Positions 15,620-62,117 of a stretch of 64,000 nucleotides of DNA are shown here, piece after piece. This stretch comes from Somniosus microcephalus. Lineage: Eukaryota. The DNA is taken from positions 340,690,001 to 340,754,000 of the forward strand of contig CM126204.1 in NCBI GenBank assembly GCA_052327205.1, in the 5' to 3' direction. Within the stretch, counting starts at the first letter, position 1; every line of letters begins with the position of its first letter. The position numbers and the translations under genes were made by a program. Below the pieces are notes generated by a model that made no database searches, was not told the DNA's origin, and saw nothing but the letters and a program-made list of their open reading frames with translations.

Positions 15620-15862
15620 ATTATATAGCGCCTATCATGAACTCAGGACATCCCAAAGTGCTTTACATCCAATAAAGTACATTTTGAAGTGTAGACGTTC
15701 TGTAATGTAGGAAACGCGGCAGCCAATTTGCGCACAGCAAGCTCCCACAAACAGCAATGTGATAATGAGCCGATAATCTATTTTAGTGATATTGTTTGAG
15801 GGATAAATATTGGCCAGGACACCGGGGATAACTCCTCTGCTCTTCTTCGAAATAGTGCCATT
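15620..15862 (-). mobile_element. Deu-type (SacSINE1-like) SINE, 3' half; 5' half at 21594-21750
   Basis: tatatagcgcc...caggacatcccaaagtgctttac...gaaatagtgccatt joins seamlessly to gtgccattgagatc...ggagtgggactt. Confidence 0.75.
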
Positions 15863-15878
15863 CAATGTCCTCTGTAAG

Positions 15879-16041
15879 CTGCGCTGCCTCCTGCACAGCC
15901 TGCCTCCCCCACTGCGCGGCCTCCTGCGCAGCCTGCCTCCCCCACTGCGCGGCCTCCTGCGCAGCCTGCCTCCCCCACTGCGCGGCCTCCTACGCAGCCT
16001 GCCTCCCCCACTGCGCTCCCCCCTGCGCAGCCTGCCTCCCC
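15879..16041. repeat. GC-rich minisatellite, left piece (33-bp unit)
   Basis: Repeated ccactgcgcggcctcctgcgcagcctgcctccc. Confidence 0.95.
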
Positions 16042-19000
16042 TGTAGTGTCCGCGTATCAATAATACACGGACTGCAGGAGAACAATAATAATAGGTATTT
16101 ACTGAACAGAGGGTAAGCTTAAACTGAAGTACAGAAGCCTGCTATGGCTTTATATACAGGTGTGGTCACTGCTGGTACTGCAGTATAAAATCAGTTCTCT
16201 CATAAAGCACCATACACAACAATTCCTCCCCTTTTAGATAAACAGTACATAACATTCATTTAACAACTAAATAATAACTAATTACAATTACAATTTTCTC
16301 TGTACTATATACATCAACTGAAATAATCATTTATAAGTTCAGTCTTTGAGGAGGCTTCCTGATCCTGACTGGATAGCGCCTTTCTCGAGTATCCTGTTCT
16401 TCCGGCGGAGTCGATTCTGGCTCATTGTCATTGGTTGGTTCGTCAGCTTCCAATACCACTGATTCTGAGGTAGACGCAATCTGTACTTCGGGTTCATTAC
16501 CAGGTGCACATGCTCGTGGTATGGGTTTGACTTGTTCCTGTGACTCTAGAATCTGGTCAGCATGGCGTCTCACGATGCTCTCTCCAACGTCCACTGTGTA
16601 CATTAGTGGTCCCTGCTGTGTGCATATCGTTCCTGGCTGCCATTTTTCTGTTCGGTACTCGCGGGCCAAGACTGGTTGCCCTATCTTGAAGCTCCTGGTT
16701 GGCTTCTCATTGATGTGCTGGAATTGCTTATCCTCAACATCTCGTCTTATGTTTGGTTTGAGCAAATCCAGGCGACATCTTAGCCTTCGGTTGAAGAACA
16801 TTATGGCTGGAGCTTGGTTGGTGACTGCATGTGTCGCATTCCGGTAAGCAAACAAGAAATTATCCACCTTGTGTTGTAGTGGTATGTCGTCGTTATACAT
16901 CGCCTTTATTGCCTTTTTAAAGGTCTGAACAAACCTCTCAGCCAATCCATTTGTGGCTGGATGATATGGGGCAGATGTGTAATGTTTCACCCCATTATTC
17001 CTCAGAAACCTCCGGAAATCCTCGGACACAAACTGTGGTCCATTGTCGGAGCAAATCTGTTCTGGCAAGCCATTCCTGGCAAAGATGGTCCATAGGACTG
17101 CAATAGTTTTCTCCGTGGTGGTGGAGGACATTTTGATGACCTCTGGCCATTTCGAATGGGCATCCACGGCGATTAAGAACATTGAGTCCATAAATGGACC
17201 AGCAAAATCAATGTGTACCCATTGCCATGGAGATGAGAGCCACTCCCATGGGTGTAGTGGGGCCTGTGGTGGAGCATTTTGGACCATCTGGCATCCTGTG
17301 CATCTCTTGGTCATATTCTCGATTTCTTTATCGATTCCCGGCCACCACACAAACGCCCTGGCTAGGCTCTTCATTTTTACCCGTCCCAGATGACCCTCAT
17401 GAAGCTCATTGAGCACTCTATCTCTCAACTTGGGTGGAATTACCACTCGGGATCCACACATCAAGGTCCCCCGGCACACTGACAGCTGTTCTCTCCTTGG
17501 CGAGAATGCTGGCAACAGTGAGTCGCCATGTGCTGGCCATCCCTTCACCGTCAAATCATAGACCCGAGAGAGTGTCGGGTCATTTCGGGTTTCCTTCTCT
17601 ATACTTGAGTTTGTAACAGGTAGACATTCGACTATGGTCGAATGGAATATCTCAGCAGGGTCCACTGCAAGTGCTTCCTCCACCGTAGGCAACGGTAGGC
17701 GCGACAGCCCATCAGCGTTTCCATGCTGTTTCGTACCCTTGTACTCTATGTCGTACTGATGTGCCCCAAGAAAAAGTGACCATCTTTGCAGCCGCTGCGC
17801 CATCATCACCGGAACGCCCTTCTTTGGGTTAAAAATGGAGACCAGAGGTTGATGATCAGTCAGTAGGGTGAATTTCTGCCCGTGCAGATAGTGATTAAAC
17901 TTCTTCACCCCCCACACCAGGCTGAGGGCCTCCCTGTCAATCTGGGCGTAGTTACGCTCGGCTGAGGTTAACAAGCGCGACGCAAAGGCTATTGGCCTCT
18001 CTGAACCGTCAAGGAATTTGTGTGACAGCACCGCTCCAATGCCGTAGGGAGACGCATCACATGCCAACCAAATCGGTAGTGTTGGATTGTAGTGGGCCAA
18101 TACTTCTTTTGAAGTGATTAGGCATTTACATTTCTGAAAGGCACGCTTACACTCATCACTCCATTTCCATGTTACTCCAGTTTGCAGCAGGGCGTTCAGT
18201 GGGTGCAGAATTGCAGATAAATTCAGCAAGAACTTATGGTAGTAGTTCACCAACCTGAGAAACGACCTCAGTTGCGACACATTTTCCGGTGCTGGAGCCT
18301 TGACTACTGCCTCAATCTTGTCTGGGGACTTATGCAGCCCTTCCTCATCAATCATGTGGCCACAATACGAGATTTGTCTCCTGAAGAACTCGCATTGGGG
18401 CGGTTGGCTCGTAGCCCATATTCTTGTAATCTAGTGAGCACCTGCTCCAGGTTGGCAAGGTGTTCACTGTCATTTTCGCCCGTAACCAGGATGTCGTCCA
18501 AATAACACTGGCTCCCCGGGATCCCTTGCAGGACTTGTTCCATCGCCCTCTGCTACCCCGAATACCAGTCGGTTGTACTGGTAACGACCTTTGTGAGTGT
18601 TTATCGTGAGGTATTTCCTAGATGCTTCTATCACTTCCATTTGTAGATACGCTTGGGCCAGATCAATCTTCGTAAAGCGTTTCCCTCCAGATAGTGAGGC
18701 GAAAATATCTTCTATCCGTGGAAGTGGATATTGTACTGTGTGCAGGACTGGGTTCACAGTTACCTTGAAGTCCCCACAGATGTGAACCTTCTTCGGCTCC
18801 CCAGGCATGCTGCTCAATGATTTCTTCATTACAGGAATGGTGGGTGTGGCCCACTTGCTCCAGTCCACCTTGGACAGCACACCTGAACGCTCCAGACTCT
18901 CCAGCTCTGCTTCAAAGGCTGGGCGGATCGCGTACAGTACTGGTCTGGCCTTAAAAATTTTTGGCTTTGCGTTATCTTCGATTTTTATCATTGCCGTTAC

Positions 19001-20991
19001 TCCTTTTAGAGTCCCAAGTCCTTGTTGGAACAGCTCTTTCGCGTCAGTTAGAATTTTTGACAGTCGTCCAGGTGTGACGTCATCATCCTTTTTGTCAGTC
19101 ACAGTTAGCGCCTGAATGGAATGCCGATCCAATTGTATTTTTCGGATCCATTCACGTCCCAATAATGGTGGTCCTCCATCTTGTAGTATATATAGATACA
19201 GTTTCTGTGTTTCCTTGCCGTTGTATTTAACTGGCACCCTTATTTTTCCACTGGGGTAGACTTTTTGCCCCGTGTATGTCTTCAATACAATGGACGTGTC
19301 CTTCAAGGGTATGTGTGAGAATAGCTGCTCATAGTCTCGTCGATTCATGACAGTTAGGGCTGATCCTGTGTCCAATTCCATCTTTACTTGGGATCCTGCT
19401 ATCATGAGGGTGACCCAAATGGTTCAGTGATCCTCCTTTGCGATCACGTTGTATAACTTTAGACAACTTAATCTCCTGCTCCCGGAGTCATTATCACTCT
19501 CCTGATCTTCCGAACTACTGTCATTTTTTTTTACTTTCTTGTACTTTTCCTGAGTAGTTCTTTTAGTGTTGGTTTTCTTTCCCAACCTGCAGACTCTTGC
19601 TATGTGTCCCATTTTCCCACATTGCCTGCATACTTTGTCCTTTAAACCAGCAGCCCTTCTGATCATGGGTTGTTCTGCCACAGCGATAGCACTTTTCTGC
19701 TCCATATGCCATTTCGTTAGCGCTGTATTCTTGTGGTTTCTGTTGTATTTCCACAGCTCCCCGTGCTGCTGCTTCGTAGGATACTGCCACACTGAAAGCC
19801 TGTTCTAGCGTCAGGTCCTTTTCCAAAACTATTCGTTTCTGGGTTCCTTCACTCTGGAGCCCACAGACAAACTTATCCCTTAAGGTGTCTGCCAGTCCTG
19901 CTCCGAACTGGCAGTGCTTCGATAACTTGCGTAGTTCCGTAAGATAGTCAGCATTGCTCTCATCCTTGTGCTGGTTTCTTTTATGGAACTTGAATCTTTC
20001 TGCTATCAGCAGCGGTGTAGGGTTTAGGTGTTCCTGTAAGATATTAACAATCTCTTCAAAACTTTTCTCCATTGGTTTAGCTGGGGTAATTAAATTCCAC
20101 AATAGGCCGTACGTTCTCGCGCCCATCAAATTTAATAATACCGCCACCGCCTTTCCATCGGCCACCTCATTTGCCTTGCAGTACACTTCAATTCTTTCCA
20201 CATACGTGGTCCAGTCTTCTACCTCGTTGTCGAAAGCAGTGATACTGCCAATCTTCGGCATCTTGGGTGGTTTAAAATGGCGCCTCCCGCGCTTTTTCTT
20301 CTTCCCCAATGGATTAAAATGGCGCCTCCCACGCTTTTCCTTCTTCCCCAATGGAATAAAATGGCGCCTCCCCGCTTTTCCTTCTTCCCCTTGCTGCCAC
20401 GCTGCTCCTAGCGTTCTACAGGGTACTGGCGGCGACCCGCGGCTTCGGCGCGTCTCACTTTTCCTTCCCCTCATTTTATTTTCTCTATGCTGCCCGGTTC
20501 TTGAGCACCGACCGCGCCCTGTGCGCTCCACCCTCTCTCTCTCTCTTTTCCTCCCGACGACGCTGCACGGCCCCTTTTGCAGAGCCGCTCGATCGAGCTC
20601 GAGCCCGCCGCAGTCCGGAAGGGTCAGCGCACTACCTGCTACCAGCACGATTTGCTGGAACACCTTGACTGGGGAGCCAAGCCCAGCTCTCCACAGCCTC
20701 CCCTGCAATCCTCCGAACTCCGATAGATCCCTGGGCGGTTGCCCGCGGTCAACGCCCGTTGCTCTGACTTCGACCTCCAAGAAGCTTCTTTTCAGGCGAA
20801 GATCCCCGTGAGGTGATGCAGTACTGCAGGTGAGTTCAAACCTGCTCGTCGCCAGTGTAGTGTCCGCGCATCAATAATACACGGACTGCAGGAGAACAAT
20901 ACAGAAGCCTGCTATGGCTTTATATACAGGTGTGGTCACGGCCGGTACTGCAGTATAAAATCAGTTCTCTCTTAAAGGTACATACACAACA
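16042..20991 (-). mobile_element. Gypsy LTR retrotransposon C (Mag/K02A2.6-like)
   Basis: LTRs 16042-16221 and 20856-20991; TSD TCCCC; PBS TGGCGACGAG (tRNA-Ser GCU-type); PPT aaaaggggaggaat on the minus strand. Confidence 0.95.
16331..20261 (-). pseudogene. Element C gag-pol, frameshifted
   Basis: MPKIGSI gag start, zinc knuckles, LDTGS protease, YLDD, and an RNase H/integrase ORF at 16331-18355 (674 aa). Confidence 0.93.
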
Positions 20992-21485
20992 TCCCCCACT
21001 GCGCGGCCTCCTGCGCAGCCTGCCTCCCCCACTGCGCGGCCTCCTGCGCAGCCTGCCTCCCCCACTGCGCAGCCTCCTGCGCAGCCTGCCTCTCCCACTG
21101 TGCGGCCTGCCTCCCCCACTGCGCGGCCTCCTGCGCAGCCTCCCTCCCCCATTGCGCGGCCTGCCTCCCCCACTGCGCGGCCTCCTGCGCAGCCTCCCTC
21201 CACCACTGCGCGGCCTGCCTCCCCCACTGCGCGGCCTCCTGCGCAGCCTCCTTCCCCCACTGCGCGGCCTCCCTCCCCCACTGCGCGGCCTGCCTCCCCC
21301 ACTGCGTGGCCTCCTGCGTGGCCTGCCTCCCCCACTGCGCGGTCTCCTGCGCGGCCTGCCTCCCCCGCTGCGCGGCCTGCCTCCCCCACTGCGCGGCCTC
21401 CTGTGCGGCCTGCCTCCCCCACCGCGCAGCCTCCTGCATGGCCTGCCTCCCCCGCTGCGCGGCCTGCCTCCCCGACTGCGCGGCT
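20992..21485. repeat. GC-rich minisatellite, right piece (33- and 21-bp units)
   Basis: Same unit as 15879-16041 with interspersed shorter variants. Confidence 0.95.
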
Positions 21486-21593
21486 CATTCCAGTTTTTGC
21501 GCATGTGCGGTGTCTACAATGTAAAAGCCGATGAGCGGCCTGTGCGGGACCTTGCAGATGACTGTGTGGCCGCTCAGCTTGGCAGGAACATTG

Positions 21594-21871: not shown

Positions 21872-24800
21872 TGTAGTGTATGCACTTTGCAGAAGGAACT
21901 ATATTCTGCAGTCCCTGTATACTGCAGTACCAGTAGTGACCACCCCTGTATATAAGCCTGTGTAGTAACTTTTGCATAGTAGTTCCAGTTTGTCTCCACT
22001 CAGTAAAGACCTGTTATAACCAACTCCTGCAGTCCGTGTCTCAATTACACGGGCATAATACTGGCGAAGAGCAGATCCGAACTTACCTACAGTCTGCACC
22101 ACCTCATGGGGATCCATCCCTGAAGCGAAGTTGTCAGAGGTCGAGGCCAGAAGAAAGAAAGAAAAAAAATAAAAAAAAATAAATAAAACAAACAGAAGAA
22201 ACGGGCGTCGACTGTGGGCAACCGCCTCTGATTCATCGGAGTTGAAGATTTGCAGGAGAGACTGTCGAGAGCGGGGCTTGGTTATCCTGTCGATGGTGTT
22301 CCAGTTAATCGGGCTGGTGGCAGGTAGTACACTGATCCTTCCTGGGCTGTGGCGGGCTAGAGCTCGATCGGGTGGCTTTTCAATGGGGCCGAGCAGTGGT
22401 GTCGGGAAGAGGAGAGAGAGGGTGGAGCACACAGGGCGTGGCCGGTGCTACGAAGCCGGGCAGCGTACAGACCCGAGAAGAGGGAGGAAAGTGTCCCGCA
22501 GGGTTGCTCCGACGACGGGGAAATAAAAGAAATTAGAAGCGCAGAAAGCCACGAGGAGCTGCAGTTTGCCACGGGAACCGCAGAGAGTGGCGTTAGCAGC
22601 AGCGCGGGGGGAAGTGCGCGAAGACCATAGGGCGTCGTCATCAAGGCATAATACGCCAGCAACAGCGCTAGCAGCAGCGGGGAAGACGGAAAGCATGGGA
22701 GGCGCCATTTTGTTAAATCGGGGAAGAAGGCAAAGCGCGGGAGGCGCCATCTTAGATTTCCAAGATGCCGAAGACTGGCAATATCACTGCCTTCGATAAT
22801 GCAATAGAAGACTGAGCCACGTATGTGGAAAGAGTCGAAGTATATTGCGAGGCAAACGAAGTAGCCGATGAGAAAAAGGCATCGGTACTACTAAACTTAA
22901 TGGGCGCAAGAACGTACGGCCTATTGCGGAACCTGATTACTCCAGCCAAACCGATGGCGAAGAGTTTTAACGAAATTGTTGATATCCTACAGGAACACCT
23001 AAATCCTACACCGCTGCTGATAGCAGAAAGATTTAAATTCCACAGGAGAAATCAGCATAAAGATGAGAGCAATGCTGATTACCTTACAGAACTACGCAAG
23101 CTATCAAAGCACTGCCAGTTCGGAGCAGGACTGGCAGATACCCTACGGGACAAATTTGTCTGTGGACTCCTGAGTGAAGGAACCCAGAAGAGGTTACTCT
23201 CAGAGAAAGAGCTGACGCTAGATAAGGCTTTCAGCATGGCAGTATCATACGAAGCAGCAGCAAGGGGAGCTGCGGAAATACAGCAAAAGCCACAGGAATA
23301 CGGCACCCACGAAATGACATGGGGATTTGAAAAATGTTATCGCTGCGGCAGAACAACCCATGACCAGAAGGACTGCTGGTCCAAGGACAAAATATGCAGG
23401 CAATGCGGAAAGATGGGACACATTGCACGAGTTTGCAGGTCTGGGAAGAAGACTAACGACAACAAAAAGGCTACGAAGGAACAGTACAGGAAAGTACAAA
23501 AGATGACGGACAGTAGTTCCGAAGGCCAGATGAGTGATAGTGAATCCGGGAACAAGAGACTAAGCTGTCTCAAACTTCACAACGTAATCGCAAAAGAGGA
23601 TCACCGAACCATTTGGGTCACCCTCACGATAGCAGGGTCCCAAGTCAAAATGGAATTGGATACAGGATCAGCCCTGACCGTCATGAATCGACGAGACTAC
23701 GAGCGGCTATTCTCACACATACCCTTGAAAGAGACATCCATTGTCTTGAAGACGTATACGGGGCAAAAAGTATACCCCAGAGGGAAAATAAGGGTGCCTG
23801 TCGAATACAACGGCAAGGAAATACAGAAATTGTATCTGTACATACTACAAGATGGTGGACCACTGTTATTGGGACGTGAATGGATCAGAAAGATAAGTTT
23901 AGACTGGCACTCCATTCAGGCACTGACGGTGGCTGGTAAAAAGGATGACGACGTCACACCTGGACGATTGTCAACATTCTTAGCTAACGCCAAAGAGGTA
24001 TTTCAACAAGAACTGGGAACTCTTAAAGGCGTAACCACCTCGATAAAAATAGAAGAGAATGCAATTCCCAAGTTTTTCAAAGCAAGACCGGTACCATATG
24101 CAATTCGCCCAGCCGTCGAGGCAGAGCTGGAGAATCTGGAGAATGCAGGCATGTTATCTAAGGTAGACTGGAGCGAGTGGGCGACACCCATCGTTCCTGT
24201 CATGAAGAAAACGTTAAACAATAAGTCTGAGGAGCCAAGGAAGGTTCGCATCTGTGGGGACTTCAAGGTGACGGTGAACCCAGTCCTTCACACAGTACAA
24301 TATCCTCTCCCGAGGATAGAAGATATTTTCGCCTCACTATCTGGAGGGAAGCGTTTTACAAAAATTGACCTAGCACAAGCATATTTGCAGATGGAGGTTG
24401 AAGAATCCTCTAGGAAGTATCTCACGATAAACACTCACAAAGGTCTTTACCAGTATAATCGACTGGTATTCGGAGTAGCATCAGCTCCGGCGATATGGCA
24501 AAGAGCGATGGAACAAGTCCTGCAAGGGATTCCGGGGACTCAGTGTTACTTGGACGACATCCTAGTGACAGGTGAAGATGACAGTGAACACCTTGCCAAC
24601 CTAGAGCAGGTGCTCACTAGACTAAGAGAACATGGGCTACGAGCCAATCGCCCCAAGTGCGAGTTTTTTAAGAAACAGATATCGTATTGTGGCCACGTGA
24701 TTGATGAAGAGGGGTTACATAAGTCCCCTGACAAAATTGAAGCGGTAGTTAAGGCTCCAGCGCCTGAAAATGTGTCGCAACTGAGGTCATTCCTCGGATT

Positions 24801-27012
24801 GGTGAATTACTACCATAAGTTTTTGCCGAATTTGTCCACAATTCTGCACCCACTGAATGCCCTACTACAAACTGGAGTAGCATGGAAATGGAGCAATGAA
24901 TGTAAGCGGGCCTTTCAGAAGTGTAAAGACCTAATCACTTCAAGAGAAGTATTGGCTCACTACAACCCAGCACTGCCAATCAGGCTGGCGTGTGATGCGT
25001 CTCCCTCCGGCATTGGAGCGGTACTGTCACATAAATTCCTTGATGGTTCAGAGAGGCCGATAGCTTTTGCGTCACGCTCGTTAACTTCAGCCGAGCGTAA
25101 CTATGCCCAGATTGACAGAGAGGCCCTCAGCCTGGTGTGGGGGGTGAAGAAGTTCAATCACTACCTGCACGGTCAGAAATTTACTCTACTAACTGATCAT
25201 CAACCTCTTGTCTCCATTTTCAACCCTCAGAAGGGCGTCCCGATAATGACAGCAGAACGGCTACAGAGGTGGTCCCTTTTCCTAGGGGCACACCAATATG
25301 ACATCAAGTACAAAGGAACTAAATAGCATGGGAATGCTGATGGATTGTCATGCCTACTGTTGCCGACGGTGGAAGAAGCACCTGCAGTGGATCCAGTGGA
25401 GATATTCCACTCGACCATAGTCGAATGTCTCCCTGTGACGAATGCAAACATAGAAAAGGAAACACGAAATGACCCGACACTCTCCTGGGTCTATGATTTA
25501 ACGGTGAAGGGATGGCCAGCACATGGCGAACCACTGTTGCCAGCATTCTCGCCGAGAAGAGAACAGCTGTCAGTGTGCCGAGGAACCTTGATGTGTGGAT
25601 CCAGAGTAGTAATTCCACCCAAATTGAAGGATAGAGTGCTCAATGAGCTTCATGAGGGTCATCTGGGAGGGGTAAAAATGAAGAACTTAGCCAGAGCGTT
25701 TGTGTGGTGGCCGGGAATCGATAGAGAAATCGAAGAGATGACAAAGAGCTGTACAGGATGCCAGAAGGTCCAAAACGCCCCACCACAAGCCCCTCTACAT
25801 CCATGGGAGTGGCCCTGATCTCCATGGCAAAGGGTACACATTGATTTTGCTGGTCCATTTATGGACTCGATGTTTTTAATTGCGGTGGATGCACATTCAA
25901 AGTGGCCAGTGGTAATAAAAATGTCCTCAACCACTACAGAAAAAACTATCACAGTCTTACGAACCATATTCGCCAGAAATGGGCTGCCTGAACAGATTTG
26001 CTCTGACAATGGACCACAGTTTGTGTCTGAAGAGTTCCGGAGGTTCTTAAAGAACAATGGTGTTAAGCATTACACATCCGCCCCATATTATCCAGCCACC
26101 AATGGATTGGCTGAGAGGTTCGTTCAAACATTCAAGAAGGCTATCAAGGCAATGTGTAATGAAAACATACCCCTACAACACAAGGTGGATAACTTCTTGT
26201 TTGCCTACCGGAATGCGACACATGCGGTTACCAACCAAACTCCAGCCATGATGTTCTTCAATCGAAGACTACGATGCCGCTTGGATTTGGTTAAGCCAAA
26301 CGTCCGAAGAGATGTGGAGAACAGGCAGTTTCAGAATATGAATGAAAGGCCGACCAGGAGTTTTAAGATAGGTCAACCAGTTTTGGCCCGCGACTACCGC
26401 ACAGAGAAATGGCAGCCAGGAACGATCTGTACACGGCAAGGACCTCTAATGTATACCGTGGACGTTGGAGAGAGCATTGTAAGACGCCATGCTGACCAGA
26501 TTCTAGAGTCACTGGAAAACGTCAATTCCACACCACGATCCGATACACCTGGTGATGAAACCAAAGTACCAATTGCATCTACCTCAGAATCGGTGATATT
26601 GGAAGCAGACGAACCAAACAACAACGTTGATCCCGAATCAACTTTGCCAGAAGAACCTGATACCCCAAAGAGGCGTTATCCAGACAGAATCAGGACGCCT
26701 CCTCAAAGACTGAACTTATAATTGCTTAACTTCAGCTAATGTATCTAGCAACTGTAATTGTAAATATGTTATTTAATTATTAATCGAATGTTATGTACTG
26801 TTTAGCTAAAAGGGGAGGAATTGTCGTGTATGTACTTTGCAGAAGGAACTATATTCTGCAGCCCTTGTATTATGCAGTACCAGTAGTGACCACCCCTGTA
26901 TATAAGCCTGTGTAGTAACTTTTGCATAGTAGTTCCAGTTTGTCTCCACTCAGTAAAGACCTGTTATAACCAACTCCTGCAGTCCGTGTCTCAATTACAC
27001 ACGGACATAATA
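21872..27012 (+). mobile_element. Gypsy LTR retrotransposon D (relative of C)
   Basis: LTRs 21872-22060 and 26822-27012; TSD GCTCA; PBS TGGCGAAGAG; PPT aaaaggggaggaat. Confidence 0.95.
22765..26721 (+). pseudogene. Element D single gag-pol ORF with a few premature stops
   Basis: ATG at 22765 (MPKTGNI); 833-aa stretch 22825-25326 covering gag, PR, RT and RH; stops near 22813, 25324 and 25816; integrase to 26721. Confidence 0.95.
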
Positions 27013-27655
27013 GCTCAGTGCAATGCTAAGAGTTTCATTGATTGAGGTATCATCCTTTGAATAATTTATCTGCCTGGTCCCGTGGTTCAGGTGGAAGTTA
27101 AGGATCCTGTGGCATTATCCAAAGAAGATCAGGGAGTTATCTGATGTTCTGGCCAACATTTTCCCCTCAATAAATATTTCCCCAAAACATTGTTGATCTG
27201 TTGCTCATCTCATTACTGTTTGTGAGAGCTTGCTGTGCAGAAATGACTGTCGTACTTGCCTATAGCAATAGTGGCTGCACTTCTAAAAGTAATTCATCGT
27301 ATATGAAGTGCTTTAAGACAGTTGAGATGCTTTTTGTGATTCTTGTAATGATCAATAACATGTCATTCTATAGTGGACACTAGGTGGAGCCGTAGAGCTG
27401 TATATAGCTGTATGTATAAGACTACACCACCCAGCTGTATGATATTAAGACTACATTACCCATGAGGCACTAGGCTACCCACAAGGCAGCAGTCAAGATG
27501 GAAGCCTCCACAGATACAGTACCTCGTCCACATGTGCTCAATAAAAGGTCTAGCAAAAGCTAGCAGTGTTCATAATAAGAATGTCTAGTTATTAATGAAC
27601 ATAACATGGTACCAGGAGTGGGGTGAAGATCTGCTGAAAATTGTGAAAAGCGACT

Positions 27656-27919
27656 GTGTCCTACAAGGGGAAGAAAGGTGGGCAGAACAGAAATGAAAAG
27701 CAATCGGAGGATGACATTTTTAATTGTAAACGCTGTGGTTACAAACACCAGTTAAGACAATGCCCAGCGTTTGGAAAAATGTGCACAAAGTGTAATGGAA
27801 AGAATCACTTTGCCAAACAATGCTTTTCAAAAGTAAAAATGATGAAAGGGCAACGAGTTAATGTGATTGAGGACACTGATTTAAGTGAGACATTTTTTTG
27901 TAGGAATGGTGTCATGTGA
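27656..27919 (+). pseudogene. Element E gag C-terminal remnant (zinc knuckles only)
   Basis: CKRCGYKH..C and CTKCNGKNHFAKQC lie ~100 bp after the PBS; the capsid region is absent. Confidence 0.85.
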
Positions 27920-28865
27920 CGATATCAAAAAAGATACAGAAAATGTGCAGCCCTCAGAAATAGACAATGCTGAACATAAAGTCAATGCAGTAAAAGAGGA
28001 CAAATGGATGATCCCACTGCAGATAAATGGAGCATTAGTTACATTGAAACTGGACACTGGGGCAAAAGCAAACTTAATCAGTATGAGTGACATTAACAAT
28101 ATGAAAGAAAAGCCCAAAATACAGAAAAAGTCAGTACTACTGAAGGACTATAATGGACAGAAAATCGATAGCTTAGGTGTATGCAGGCTCAAAGCGACAG
28201 TCAAAGACAAAGTGCATCATCTCATGTTTTCTGTTGTGGCTGAAAGACTTGATTCGATACTAGGTGACAAAGCTTGTGAAGACTTAGAACTGGTCAAGAG
28301 AGTCTACCGTATAAACTGTGCCATAAGCAGACCAGATGACTCAGGTGATGAAGCAGAGAGCCCATCAAGGATGAAAAGGCCAAAGGGTATCCATGTCTTC
28401 AAAAAGCCTAGTTTCTCCAAGAAGAAAGAAAAAGACTTTAAGGTCAAAGAGAAGCACAAAGAGGAAAAACACAAGGAGAAAAAGTCCAAAGATATAACCG
28501 CAGCAGATGTTGTTAAGCAGTGGAAAGAGAAAAAGAAAAAGAAGAAGCCTGCACCAGAGCAGGAAGCAGTTCCGGTGGATACTCCTTCTTCCCTCAGGCC
28601 AATCTTTGGTGTTCCATTAGCCGAGGCTGCTGAGAGGACTATGCTGTATGATGGGATCCAGCCGCCAGCAGTTTTTCGAGAGTGCATTGACTACATTGAG
28701 AGTTATGGCATGAAGAGTGATGGAAACACTGAAACCCTCTCCAAGCAAAGATCGCAAGGAGACCTCGATCTATACAAGAGCAGATTGATGACAATGCCGC
28801 AACTGCATCTTATCATTCACCGCCAGAACAATCTCATGAAGACACATCAGACTTACCCGTGTTGA
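27906..28865 (+). CDS. Chimeric ORF: retrotransposon aspartic protease fused in frame to a RALBP1 fragment (expression unknown)
   Basis: ATG at 27906 (GGAATGG), LDTGAKAN protease, then SGDEAESPSRMKR...YGMK with no intervening stop. Confidence 0.7.
   Translation: MVSCDDIKKDTENVQPSEIDNAEHKVNAVKEDKWMIPLQINGALVTLKLDTGAKANLISMSDINNMKEKPKIQKKSVLLKDYNGQKIDSLGVCRLKATVKDKVHHLMFSVVAERLDSILGDKACEDLELVKRVYRINCAISRPDDSGDEAESPSRMKRPKGIHVFKKPSFSKKKEKDFKVKEKHKEEKHKEKKSKDITAADVVKQWKEKKKKKKPAPEQEAVPVDTPSSLRPIFGVPLAEAAERTMLYDGIQPPAVFRECIDYIESYGMKSDGNTETLSKQRSQGDLDLYKSRLMTMPQLHLIIHRQNNLMKTHQTYPC
28341..28720 (+). pseudogene. RALBP1: Captured RALBP1 (RLIP76) coding fragment: Lys-rich region and start of the RhoGAP domain
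   Basis: SGDEAESPSRMKRPKGIHVFKKPSFSKKKEKDFK...TAADVVKQWKEKKKKKKP...RPIFGVPLAEAAERTMLYDGI..PAVFRECIDYIESYGMK matches vertebrate RALBP1 as I recall it. Confidence 0.92.
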
Positions 28866-29984
28866 GAAGATCCACACGTGAAGTAAAAGAGCCTGATGGA
28901 CTTATTCTTTGAGTACAATGTAAAGCTTTGAAAATGTGTTGACTGTTTTGAAAATGTTTATGTTTATAGAGCACTAACAAAAGTGTTACTGATATTATCT
29001 TTATTGTTTTCTTGAAAGTTGATTGATATTGATTTTGTTAAACCTCAAAGAAAGGGGGATGTAACGATCAATAACATGTCATTCTATAGTGGACACTAGG
29101 TGGAGCCGTAGAGCTGTATATAGCTGTATGTATAAGACTACACCACCCAGCTGTATGATATTAAGACTACATTACCCATGAGGCACTAGGCTACCCACAA
29201 GGCAGCAGTCAAGATGGAAGCCTCCACAGATTCAGTACCTAGTCCACATGTGCTCAATAAAAGGTCTAGCAAAAGCTAGCAATGTTCATAATATGAATGT
29301 CTAGTTATTAATGAACATAACAATTCTTTGTTATCTAAATGTATAAAAGTTTTAGGGGGCTGTTTTCCCCGCTGTAGCGCCTGCTTAGCCGCCTTTAGCG
29401 CAAGATGTCACCTTGGTAAAGGAATTTAAGCGTGTGCTAGGAACAGCCGCACCGAGGATGATTAAGCCTCTGATTACCAATTAAATTGGCTCCCAACACT
29501 CATTAAAGAGTCTGTACGCCTCATTTTGCTGGCTGGCAATGCAATTAACGGCCTCTCCTAACAGCGATCAGCTGAACTGGAGTAAAGAAGTCGTTGGTGA
29601 GGATTGCGAGCACTACTTAAAGCCACGCTCAGCTTTCACTGTTCACTTGCTGATTGGGATCGGCTGACTACACTGCGTTTGAAGAGGACTTTTGATACAC
29701 GTTGGGAGACTTTCTGGGACACTTTGTCAAGACTTCAACATTCTATCAACATTTATTCTGGAGACTCTCTGAGGACTTCACTGAAAGAGAGTGAGTGCTG
29801 TGCTACTGTACCTTTATTGGAGTCAGCAGGAGAAAGGGAGTGGTTGGTCATGGGGATCTTGCTAGGGGTCCCCCTTGGTCTGGAGGAGGCGATGAGGCCA
29901 GGCAGCTGGAGGAGAAAGGGGGGAAGAGGGACAGGAGGGCGCCAGATCATAGAATCATAGAAATTTATGGCACAGAAGGAGGTC

Positions 29985-60224: not shown

Positions 60225-61010
60225 GTAATACTGAATGTAATAAATGGGAAGATGCAGAATATTGCAGGTGATTACTTCTGGAAGAGTAAGCTTGAGGTTT
60301 GGATTAGGAATCACCTATGGATGTTCAGTGTTTCGATCTCTGAAATCTGAATTCAAATTGTTTGATATAGTTTATTTTAGTACTCTGTCCTCACCATGTA
60401 ACAGTAAAAAGGCCTCAGTTGTCAGAACCTCCTAAGCCAGTGACTAAAGTGACCTCCACATATCAATGAAATTATGAATATGGTGTAATGGTTTCAAAAA
60501 CTACAAAGTGCTGGATTTGATCGTTCCTGTCCTATATCTTTTTCTTCCTGCTACATGAAAATTTAAACAAGCATTTAAAATAAAGAGCTTGGCTTAGTCT
60601 CTATTCCTTTAGAATGAGGTGTGTGGGTAAAATGACGGAGCAAGTCCTTGAAAGCATTAAATGGGCCATCTTGGCTCAACGTAAAAAAAAAATGAACTGT
60701 GGTCCCTTTCAACAACACTGAATGCTGCGTGCCTTCTTCAGCGCAATGAGAGGTACTGACTTCTGATAATTAATTTGCACTGTTGTACCCCCACACCCTC
60801 CCCCCTCTCCTCCGCTCCCATAAAACCCGAAATCCGATCAAACCACAGGCTTCCCTGGCGCAGTCGACAGACTCTCCACAAATGCATAATCAATTTGCCG
60901 AACCCTTTTTTCTATCTGTAGAAATTTTGCAAGATGGAGCCTGAGCTGATTAAAATGACGACTTCCATTGATAGATTCCGGAGCTTTGCTTGTGTCACTT
61001 TGCACTTTAA

Positions 61011-61732
61011 GCGGCAGAGCTTAAATACCGGCAGTTGCGAGGTGAGGCCCGACCAGAGCATCGGACCTGTGAGGGAGCAGTGACCGGCGGCAGAGCTTAA
61101 ATACCGGCAGTTGCGAGGTGAGGCCCGACCAGAGCATCGGACCTGTGAGGGAGCAGTGACCGGCGGCAGAGCTTAAATACCGGCAGTTGCGAGGTGAGGC
61201 CCGACCAGAGCATCGGACCTGTGAGGAAGCAGTGACCGGCGGCAGAGCTTAAATACCGGCAGTTGCGAGGTGAGGTCCGACCAGAGCATCGGACCTGTGA
61301 GGGAGCAGTGACCGGTGGCAGAGCTTAAATACCGGCAGTTGCGAGGTGAGGCCCAACCAGAGCATCGGACCTGTGAGGGAGCAGTGACCAGCGGCAGAGC
61401 TTAAATACCGGCAGTTGTGAGGTGAGGCCCGACCAGAGCATCGGACCTGTGAGGGAGCAGTGACCAGCGGCAGAGCTTAAATACCGTCAGTTGCGAGGTG
61501 AGGCCCAACCAGAGCATCGGACCTGTGAGGGAGCAGTGACCGGCGGCAGAGCTTAAATACCGGCAGTTGCGAGGTGAGGCCCAACCAGAGCATCGGACCT
61601 GTGAGGGAGCAGTGACCAGCGGCAGAGCTTAAATACCGTCAGTTGCGAGGTGAGGCCCGACCAGAGCATCGGACCTGTGAGGGAGCAGTGACCGGCGGCA
61701 GAGCTTAAATACCGGCAGTTGCGAGGTGAGGC
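61011..61732 (+). repeat. Tandem array of ~9.5 x 76-bp monomers upstream of CR1 ORF1
   Basis: Unit gcggcagagcttaaataccggcagttgcgaggtgaggcccgaccagagcatcggacctgtgagggagcagtgaccg starts at 61011, 61087, ... 61695. Confidence 0.97.
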
Positions 61733-62117
61733 TTACCAACTTAGCAGCAGAGGAGAGAGGCAAAAAGTAATCCAAGTGTGACGTCACCAGGAAGTAGGTA
61801 AGTGATTGGTTGGATTGGTTGGTGAGTATTTCTTTCTTTCTCCTTTTCATTACAAGCTTAAATTCTGCGGTTTTTTTTCTAGGGTCTCTGTGGTGTAATG
61901 GGGACAGTTGGGAAATAAGCACCCTAGAGTATATCTTTAACTGGTTGTACTTAATAAGGCCTTTCTGGTGCAGAGTGACTGTTGGTAAACCATTTAACTG
62001 GTGTAATTAGAGGGATTGATTTAATTTAAATCCAATTAATTAAAGGGGATACCAGCATCTAAAATCGGGTAGAGGGTGTCCATAACTAACAATAAAAAGT
62101 TTAATTAATTACATAGA

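Follow-up and report, generated by a model that had tools for sequence, protein, structure and literature searches.

Two pieces of RALBP1 inside a putative Ty3/Gypsy-derived element family of about 2,900 copies in a shark genome

An LTR retrotransposon in the 64,000-nt stretch of shark DNA that we analysed (the window, to which positions given without a contig refer) carries two pieces of the host gene RALBP1 in place of its reverse transcriptase (RT), RNase H and integrase, and the same junctions recur throughout the genome. Our preferred reading, to which we assign a probability of about 0.8, is that these copies form a non-autonomous Ty3/Gypsy family which arose from one capture of RALBP1, was mobilised by its parent to ~2,900 sites and exchanged gag-protease sequence with it, and in which the insert is most likely a passenger.

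The window element (27344-29322, forward strand) is of Gypsy type and is flanked by a 5-bp target site duplication (TSD), ATTCT, at 27339-27343 and again at 29323-29327. Its LTRs (27344-27606 and 29060-29322) are each 263 nt long and 98.1% identical, differing by 5 substitutions, and the 5' copy has TG...CA ends. A primer-binding site beginning TGGTACCAGG lies directly after the 5' LTR (27607-27624) and a polypurine tract (29046-29059) lies ahead of the 3' LTR; the paired LTRs, primer-binding site, polypurine tract and TSD described in the first-pass annotation, which was made from the letters alone, were all located. The interior begins with a gag remnant containing a CCHC zinc knuckle (27655-27916), with ~597 nt of gag including the start absent at 27654/27655 and the frame broken near 27893, and continues with an aspartyl protease domain bearing an LDTG motif (28002-28265). 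An ORF at 27885-28865 (Pfam gag-asp_proteas at aa 44-127, with E 5.7e-6 slightly below the curated cut-off) runs from the protease in frame into a 128-aa RALBP1-like peptide encoded by RALBP1 piece 1 (28340-28723). Piece 2 (28717-28771) is out of frame, as is the 3' tail of the parental pol (28770-28912, IQEQIDD...LRRSTREVKEP), which is entered at a 2-nt CT overlap; the fusion ORF stops at 28865, and LRRSTREVKEP lies at 28862-28894 in another frame, as noted earlier. The chimera had been proposed to have integrated here, and the element is indeed a real insertion with its own TSD, but the chimera originated elsewhere: the copy in the window is a dead, late member of a large family and has undergone further deletion. 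Just upstream (21872-27000) is a near-complete Gypsy element of another family, with LTRs 97% alike and few breaks in gag-pol, and an inverted relative of that element, 83-86% alike, occupies 16324-20266. The window also contains a 76-bp tandem array (60934-61841) and a G+C-rich array with 21/21/12 spacing (20957-21571), which has a relative at 15837-16094.

Assignment of the peptide to RALBP1, as made in the first-pass annotation, is borne out by its best structure match, RalA-binding protein 1 (PDB 2mbg, E 1.1e-17), and by 79-84% identity to chondrichthyan RALBP1 proteins over 100% of the query. Native RALBP1 lies on the minus strand of contig C7. Piece 1 (384 nt) corresponds to ~aa 93-230 of shark RALBP1 and is ~98% identical to the second coding exon apart from 30 nt of the exon's EEKHK repeats, which it lacks; its start is 31 nt inside the exon and its end 17 nt short of the exon end. 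A RALBP1 segment does follow the protease as first described, but it is not one piece, as host DNA continues to 28771: the 55 nt at 28717-28771 match the last exon at 54/55 positions, from its final 18 codons to the first base of the stop. The two pieces are 38.5 kb apart in the gene and ~1.25 kb apart in the mRNA (the latter distance taken from protein numbering), and both are exonic, in sense orientation and in mRNA order. Neither contains an exon-exon junction or an intron base, and the idea that the fragment might span an exon junction therefore found no support, each piece lying within a single exon; the host insert is likewise bordered by neither a poly(A) tail nor an inner TSD at its junctions. 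Because the insert has no splice junction, we can only infer RNA-level capture for this chimera. Readings of the fragment as the native exon or as a misassembly are ruled out by the location of the gene on a different contig, C7, and by the recurrence of the same junctions across the genome and in sequencing runs made independently. Among the latter, runs labelled organisms B and C yield contigs with sequence across the junctions, one X8 contig spanning 28299-28382.

A search for parents with a junction pattern that excludes the RALBP1 continuation returned 60 loci, three of which were fetched. Two of these, L066 and L067, are complete LTR-gag-PR-RT-RH-IN-LTR elements of 4.6-4.7 kb, and another repeat cuts the third short. 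On either side of a replaced block of ~2.5 kb, L067 and the chimera are 95% identical; positions 1906-4422 of L067 are absent from the chimera, which means that host sequence replaces rather than interrupts the internal ORFs. Pfam domains in L067 occur in the order RVT_1, RT_RNaseH, Integrase_H2C2 and rve, and its best PDB matches are 4ol8 and the Ty3-G Gag-Pol 7q5b (E 1e-19). By domain order and best structure matches, parent and derivative are classed as Ty3/Gypsy LTR retrotransposons; the 4.6-4.7 kb parents have neither room nor an ORF for env. At three of the 60 loci (C8:28090838, C15:39348336 and C24:38780461) the protease is joined directly to the pol tail, without RT-integrase and without RALBP1, and these are clean deletion derivatives.

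Comparison of the chimera with its parent, a check suggested in the first-pass annotation, reveals microhomology at all three junctions: 5 nt at the 5' junction (CTCAG, 28340-28344), 7 nt joining piece 1 to piece 2 (GTGAAGG, 28717-28723, with one change in the window copy) and 2 nt at the 3' junction (CT, within looser similarity). A summed overlap of at least 14 nt was obtained in 9/200,000 random junction triples, a joint chance of 4.5e-5. The CTCAG overlap requires an A at a variable site of the parent, where others have G, and GTGAAGG has no occurrence in the 21 kb of intervening RALBP1 DNA examined, about half of the interval. The L067 comparison and the junction overlaps together uphold the original proposal that RALBP1 sequence stands, in sense orientation, in place of RT-RNase H-integrase.

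Searching 6.45 Gb of genome, we found 2,865 matches to the middle junction (at most 2 mismatches) and 2,850 to the protease-RALBP1 5' junction (at most 3 mismatches), alongside 6,634 matches to the parent-type junction (at most 3 mismatches) that need not be full length; reversed-pattern controls gave 0 matches each. The chimera thus accounts for 30% of copies with this junction region. TSDs and LTRs were sampled in the first 20 exact matches on contig C1, out of the 2,865, and both LTRs could be resolved in 18. Their TSDs (14 perfect, 3 with one mismatch and 1 offset) represent 17 different target 5-mers, and their LTR pairs differ by 0-2.4% with a mean of 1.2%. The typical chimera in this sample is 2.56-2.65 kb long, and in many copies the terminal CA is replaced by GA. 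Secondary duplication also occurs: 15 of 29 other loci examined fall into two shared-flank groups, one on C39 and C199 (L013, L014, L018-L021, L023, L026, L027 and L029) and one on C3 (L003, L004, L010, L017 and L025) whose flank matches window 26479-26518 in the neighbouring Gypsy family. Since their flanks are shared, both groups are copies duplicated within larger units. One chimera copy, L042 (C7:32357715-32361072, interrupted by a 745-nt repeat), lies 24-28 kb upstream of the RALBP1 start codon on the same strand, a proximity with a chance of ~0.7-4% calculated after the fact; it is ruled out as the birthplace of the family because it is young (1/285 LTR differences) and carries the derived 30-nt deletion.

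The family is transcribed in two RNA-seq runs, X23 and X24, from organism A, which is possibly other than the window's species; 24% and 31% of the respective runs were read, and the transcript evidence as a whole comes from organisms A to C, with the small-share organisms D-H left aside. Both cover the whole element, with an internal depth of ~100-900 from source copies that cannot be told apart and unique flanks near 0. Over 28365-28455 the first mate in X23 maps to the minus strand 301 times vs 29, a sense bias if the library is of the usual stranded kind, and X24 has no steady bias. Depth at 28721 in X23 is 191, and the six rows with most support, down to one of 46 reads, include no native-type loose ends; on these grounds ~100 or more X23 reads probably span the middle junction of the chimera. 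At the 3' junction, 179 and 183 loose ends are of parent type, from which chimera and parent RNAs look comparable in level.

A second, unrelated LTR element in the same genome also carries RALBP1. At four loci (L045 at C35:108470001-108480000, L069, L070 and L071) its interior consists of the start of gag, spliced RALBP1 with three exons joined, and other host mRNA pieces, in open frames; RALBP1 is spliced across two exon junctions in 3/4 of them. In L070, RALBP1 is followed by PGK1 and ANTXR-type vWA pieces and in L069 by SDCCAG8-like (Pfam CCCAP) and PRPF6 pieces, again in open frames, and a DCUN1D-like piece was recognised by eye only in L070/L071. The gag-RALBP1 junction of this family has 7 matches, indicating ~7-8 copies, a low-copy contrast to the ~2,900-copy chimera. 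Because it carries spliced exons, the second family shows that RALBP1 mRNA has been captured at the RNA level in this genome.

The preferred reading envisages the following course of events. RALBP1 mRNA would have been co-packaged with element RNA, and during reverse transcription the enzyme would have switched from the pol tail to the region of the RALBP1 stop codon, skipped ~1.25 kb of the mRNA at GTGAAGG (unless a deletion in a later round made this join) and rejoined the element at CTCAG, immediately behind the protease, an order of events that we reconstruct from the observed junctions. The product would have kept LTRs, primer-binding site, polypurine tract, gag and protease and, since the chimera has neither RT nor integrase, would have been copied in trans by those of the parent. 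Co-packaged parent RNA may then have repeatedly replaced the gag-protease region of the chimera while the RALBP1 cassette stayed single-origin. A precursor with a longer RALBP1 insert was not found in three genome searches, with protein, exon-end and last-exon patterns. The protein search, a stricter first look with the C-terminal 429 aa, returned 7 native exons and one second-family locus; the undeleted exon-end pattern returned 9 loci, namely the native gene, the 4 fetched second-family loci and 4 others, of which 3 are near a second-family junction; and the last-exon upstream pattern returned the native gene only.

Diversity within the family is consistent with recurrent exchange outside a single-origin cassette. 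With 13 shared-flank duplicates removed, the analysis set 37 copies against one real copy. The RALBP1 insert is star-like, with a mean distance of 1.9%, 20 informative sites/kb and one substitution fixed in 36/36 inserts, and gag-protease has a diversity of 3.2-5.1% and 74 informative sites/kb. Minor gag-protease alleles are found also in one of the 3 parents in 40/94 cases vs 15/313 for singletons, and we infer that gag-protease recurrently recombined with helper (parent) RNA. Nonsynonymous to synonymous ratios for variants common to at least 3 copies are 41:25 in gag, 7:9 in protease and 6:2 in RALBP1, vs 144:44, 56:14 and 65:18 for singletons (P=0.036, P=0.009 and P=1, respectively). Recombination with helper RNA would also account for the lower ratio in gag-protease, and we do not accept that ratio as proof of selection on the chimera's own Gag because these alleles are common to parents.

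No purifying selection was detected on the insert in a test of low power; with only 8 shared variants in it, weak selection may still act there. The captured piece, which takes in the basic disordered N-terminal region and the start of the RhoGAP domain, stops three residues short of the GIYR arginine (the arginine finger) and has no Ral-binding domain; in human RLIP76 the GAP domain spans 192-368 with Arg232 as arginine finger and the Ral-binding domain after it, according to the available part of PMC8124665. As the piece stops before the arginine finger and lacks the Ral-binding domain, GAP and Ral-effector activity are predicted to be lost. The insert, a basic disordered stretch plus a truncated GAP start, is most likely a passenger. 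It is quite unlikely, in our view, that the insert is adaptive, whether through a basic RALBP1 peptide or host-like RNA that aids packaging, export or escape from silencing, or through small RNAs that act on RALBP1. The 30% share of the chimera, the scarcity of clean protease-to-tail deletions without the insert (3/60 non-RALBP1 matches), the in-frame position of piece 1 and the sense-biased transcription in X23 are all compatible with such a role, as is the presence within the captured span of human RLIP76 residues 100-120, 150-170 and 180-192, predicted or mapped interaction regions in the consulted portion of PMC8124665. Against it stand the selection result and the state of the fusion ORF (~600 codons of gag-protease-RALBP1), which is open in only 2/16 full-length C1 copies vs 3.8 expected from random, neutral decay. 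Nor is the native gene accelerated in the captured span, unlike nxf2 or aub: 4/~369 sites changed inside vs 3/~230 outside, numbers that are small, and host escape evolution is thus not seen. RALBP1 is not known as a silencing gene.

Two further alternatives concern the donor. At 4 bases the chimera and the second family agree with each other and not with today's native exon, as would be expected if the donor had been RNA from an earlier retrocopy or a different LTR chimera, for example a second-family ancestor, rather than RALBP1 mRNA itself. These bases fit ancestral states, one of them restoring an Ile that other sharks have; beyond the shared span, the native gene and the second family diverge at a similar rate; and the second-family copies examined have neither the last exon nor the repeats kept by the chimera family, all of which makes such a donor very unlikely. 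Capture at the DNA level, in which break repair copied genomic RALBP1 and a 38-kb microhomology deletion then joined two exons, would explain the missing splice junction, and microhomology is also a mark of DNA repair. We regard it as extremely unlikely, given that all four RALBP1 breakpoints fall in coding exons of a gene of more than 40 kb that is mostly intron, with no intron base included. A bolder extension, which we think unlikely, is that the captured piece drove the sweep to 30%, either because a basic peptide released from the polyprotein helps the particle or because ~1.3 Mb of transcribed RALBP1 regulates the gene in trans; together with the second family, shark LTR elements would then constitute a system that samples mRNAs and shuffles exons on a large scale, with competition among its products at the element level.

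We found no report linking RALBP1/RLIP76 to a retrotransposon, a shark element or Gag in the literature searched, which lay outside subscription journals. Titles and abstract openings likewise yielded no thousand-copy LTR capture in a vertebrate, Repbase, Dfam and subscription journals being outside that scope and the tables of Tan 2016 possibly holding higher numbers. In the available accounts, reported animal LTR captures of host mRNA are single or few-copy, compared with ~2,900 copies and ~7 Mb here, beside a helper. The family, in which LTR pairs can be dated and every junction read, offers a natural population in which to follow the fate of a captured host sequence, whether passenger, selected peptide or small-RNA source, and in which the recombination rate between non-autonomous and helper RNAs can be measured. 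Thousands of 98%-identical fragments will also confound work on RALBP1 copy number, expression and annotation in this lineage.

The likeness to oncogene acquisition drawn in the first-pass annotation holds for mechanism but not for function, as the catalytic arginine and Ral-binding domain are absent and no selection was seen. Acutely transforming retroviruses are defective, helper-dependent genomes with gag-onc fusions (described in part in PMC4299795). The chimera resembles them in having a defective genome, in-frame host sequence behind gag-region genes and helper dependence, and differs in having no env, no catalytic or effector domains and no sign of selection on the host part. Among vertebrates there are the crocodilian CrocERV29 and CrocERV31, which captured KIT-ligand and nectin3 and are present in nine and six copies; these too are vertebrate LTR lineages that carry host mRNA and were copied further, but as far as the text seen of PMC4299795 goes they are retroviruses with long ORFs under purifying selection, whereas the shark element is a Gypsy element with hundreds-fold more copies and a fragment without detectable selection.

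Other systems are alike in part, each described here from partial texts. Maize Bs1 (PMC13317346, PMC5131818) is an LTR element with host gene pieces inside, to which our second, multi-gene family is especially alike, but is a plant element with three different genes. The bat Helitron HelibatN3 carries a NUBPL fragment and likewise places a host fragment at about a thousand copies in a vertebrate, but is a DNA rolling-circle element that captured promoter, exon and intron DNA without a reverse transcriptase template switch (PMC4224331). Drosophila telomeric elements with nxf2, piwi or aub fragments are similarly amplified with a short host coding fragment and possible anti-host-gene small RNAs, but are LINEs that captured silencing-pathway genes and are accompanied by accelerated host evolution in the captured span (PMC13534243). 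A parallel in mechanism, anatomy and secondary retroposition is given by the LTR-mediated retrocopies of metazoans in Tan 2016 (PMC5131818), in which, in the sections available, partial mRNA replaces internal ORFs with more than two switches and a median microsimilarity of 6 bp at the junctions, followed by sense co-transcription and secondary retroposition as non-autonomous elements. In that work nine fly retrocopies occupy 18 insertion sites and other species have 1-8 LTR-mediated retrocopies each, whereas here one chimera built from two pieces of the same mRNA has reached ~2,900 copies and exchanges gag-protease with its helper. The capture mechanism, as set out in those sections, is thus already published (PMC5131818), and the copy number is the unusual part.
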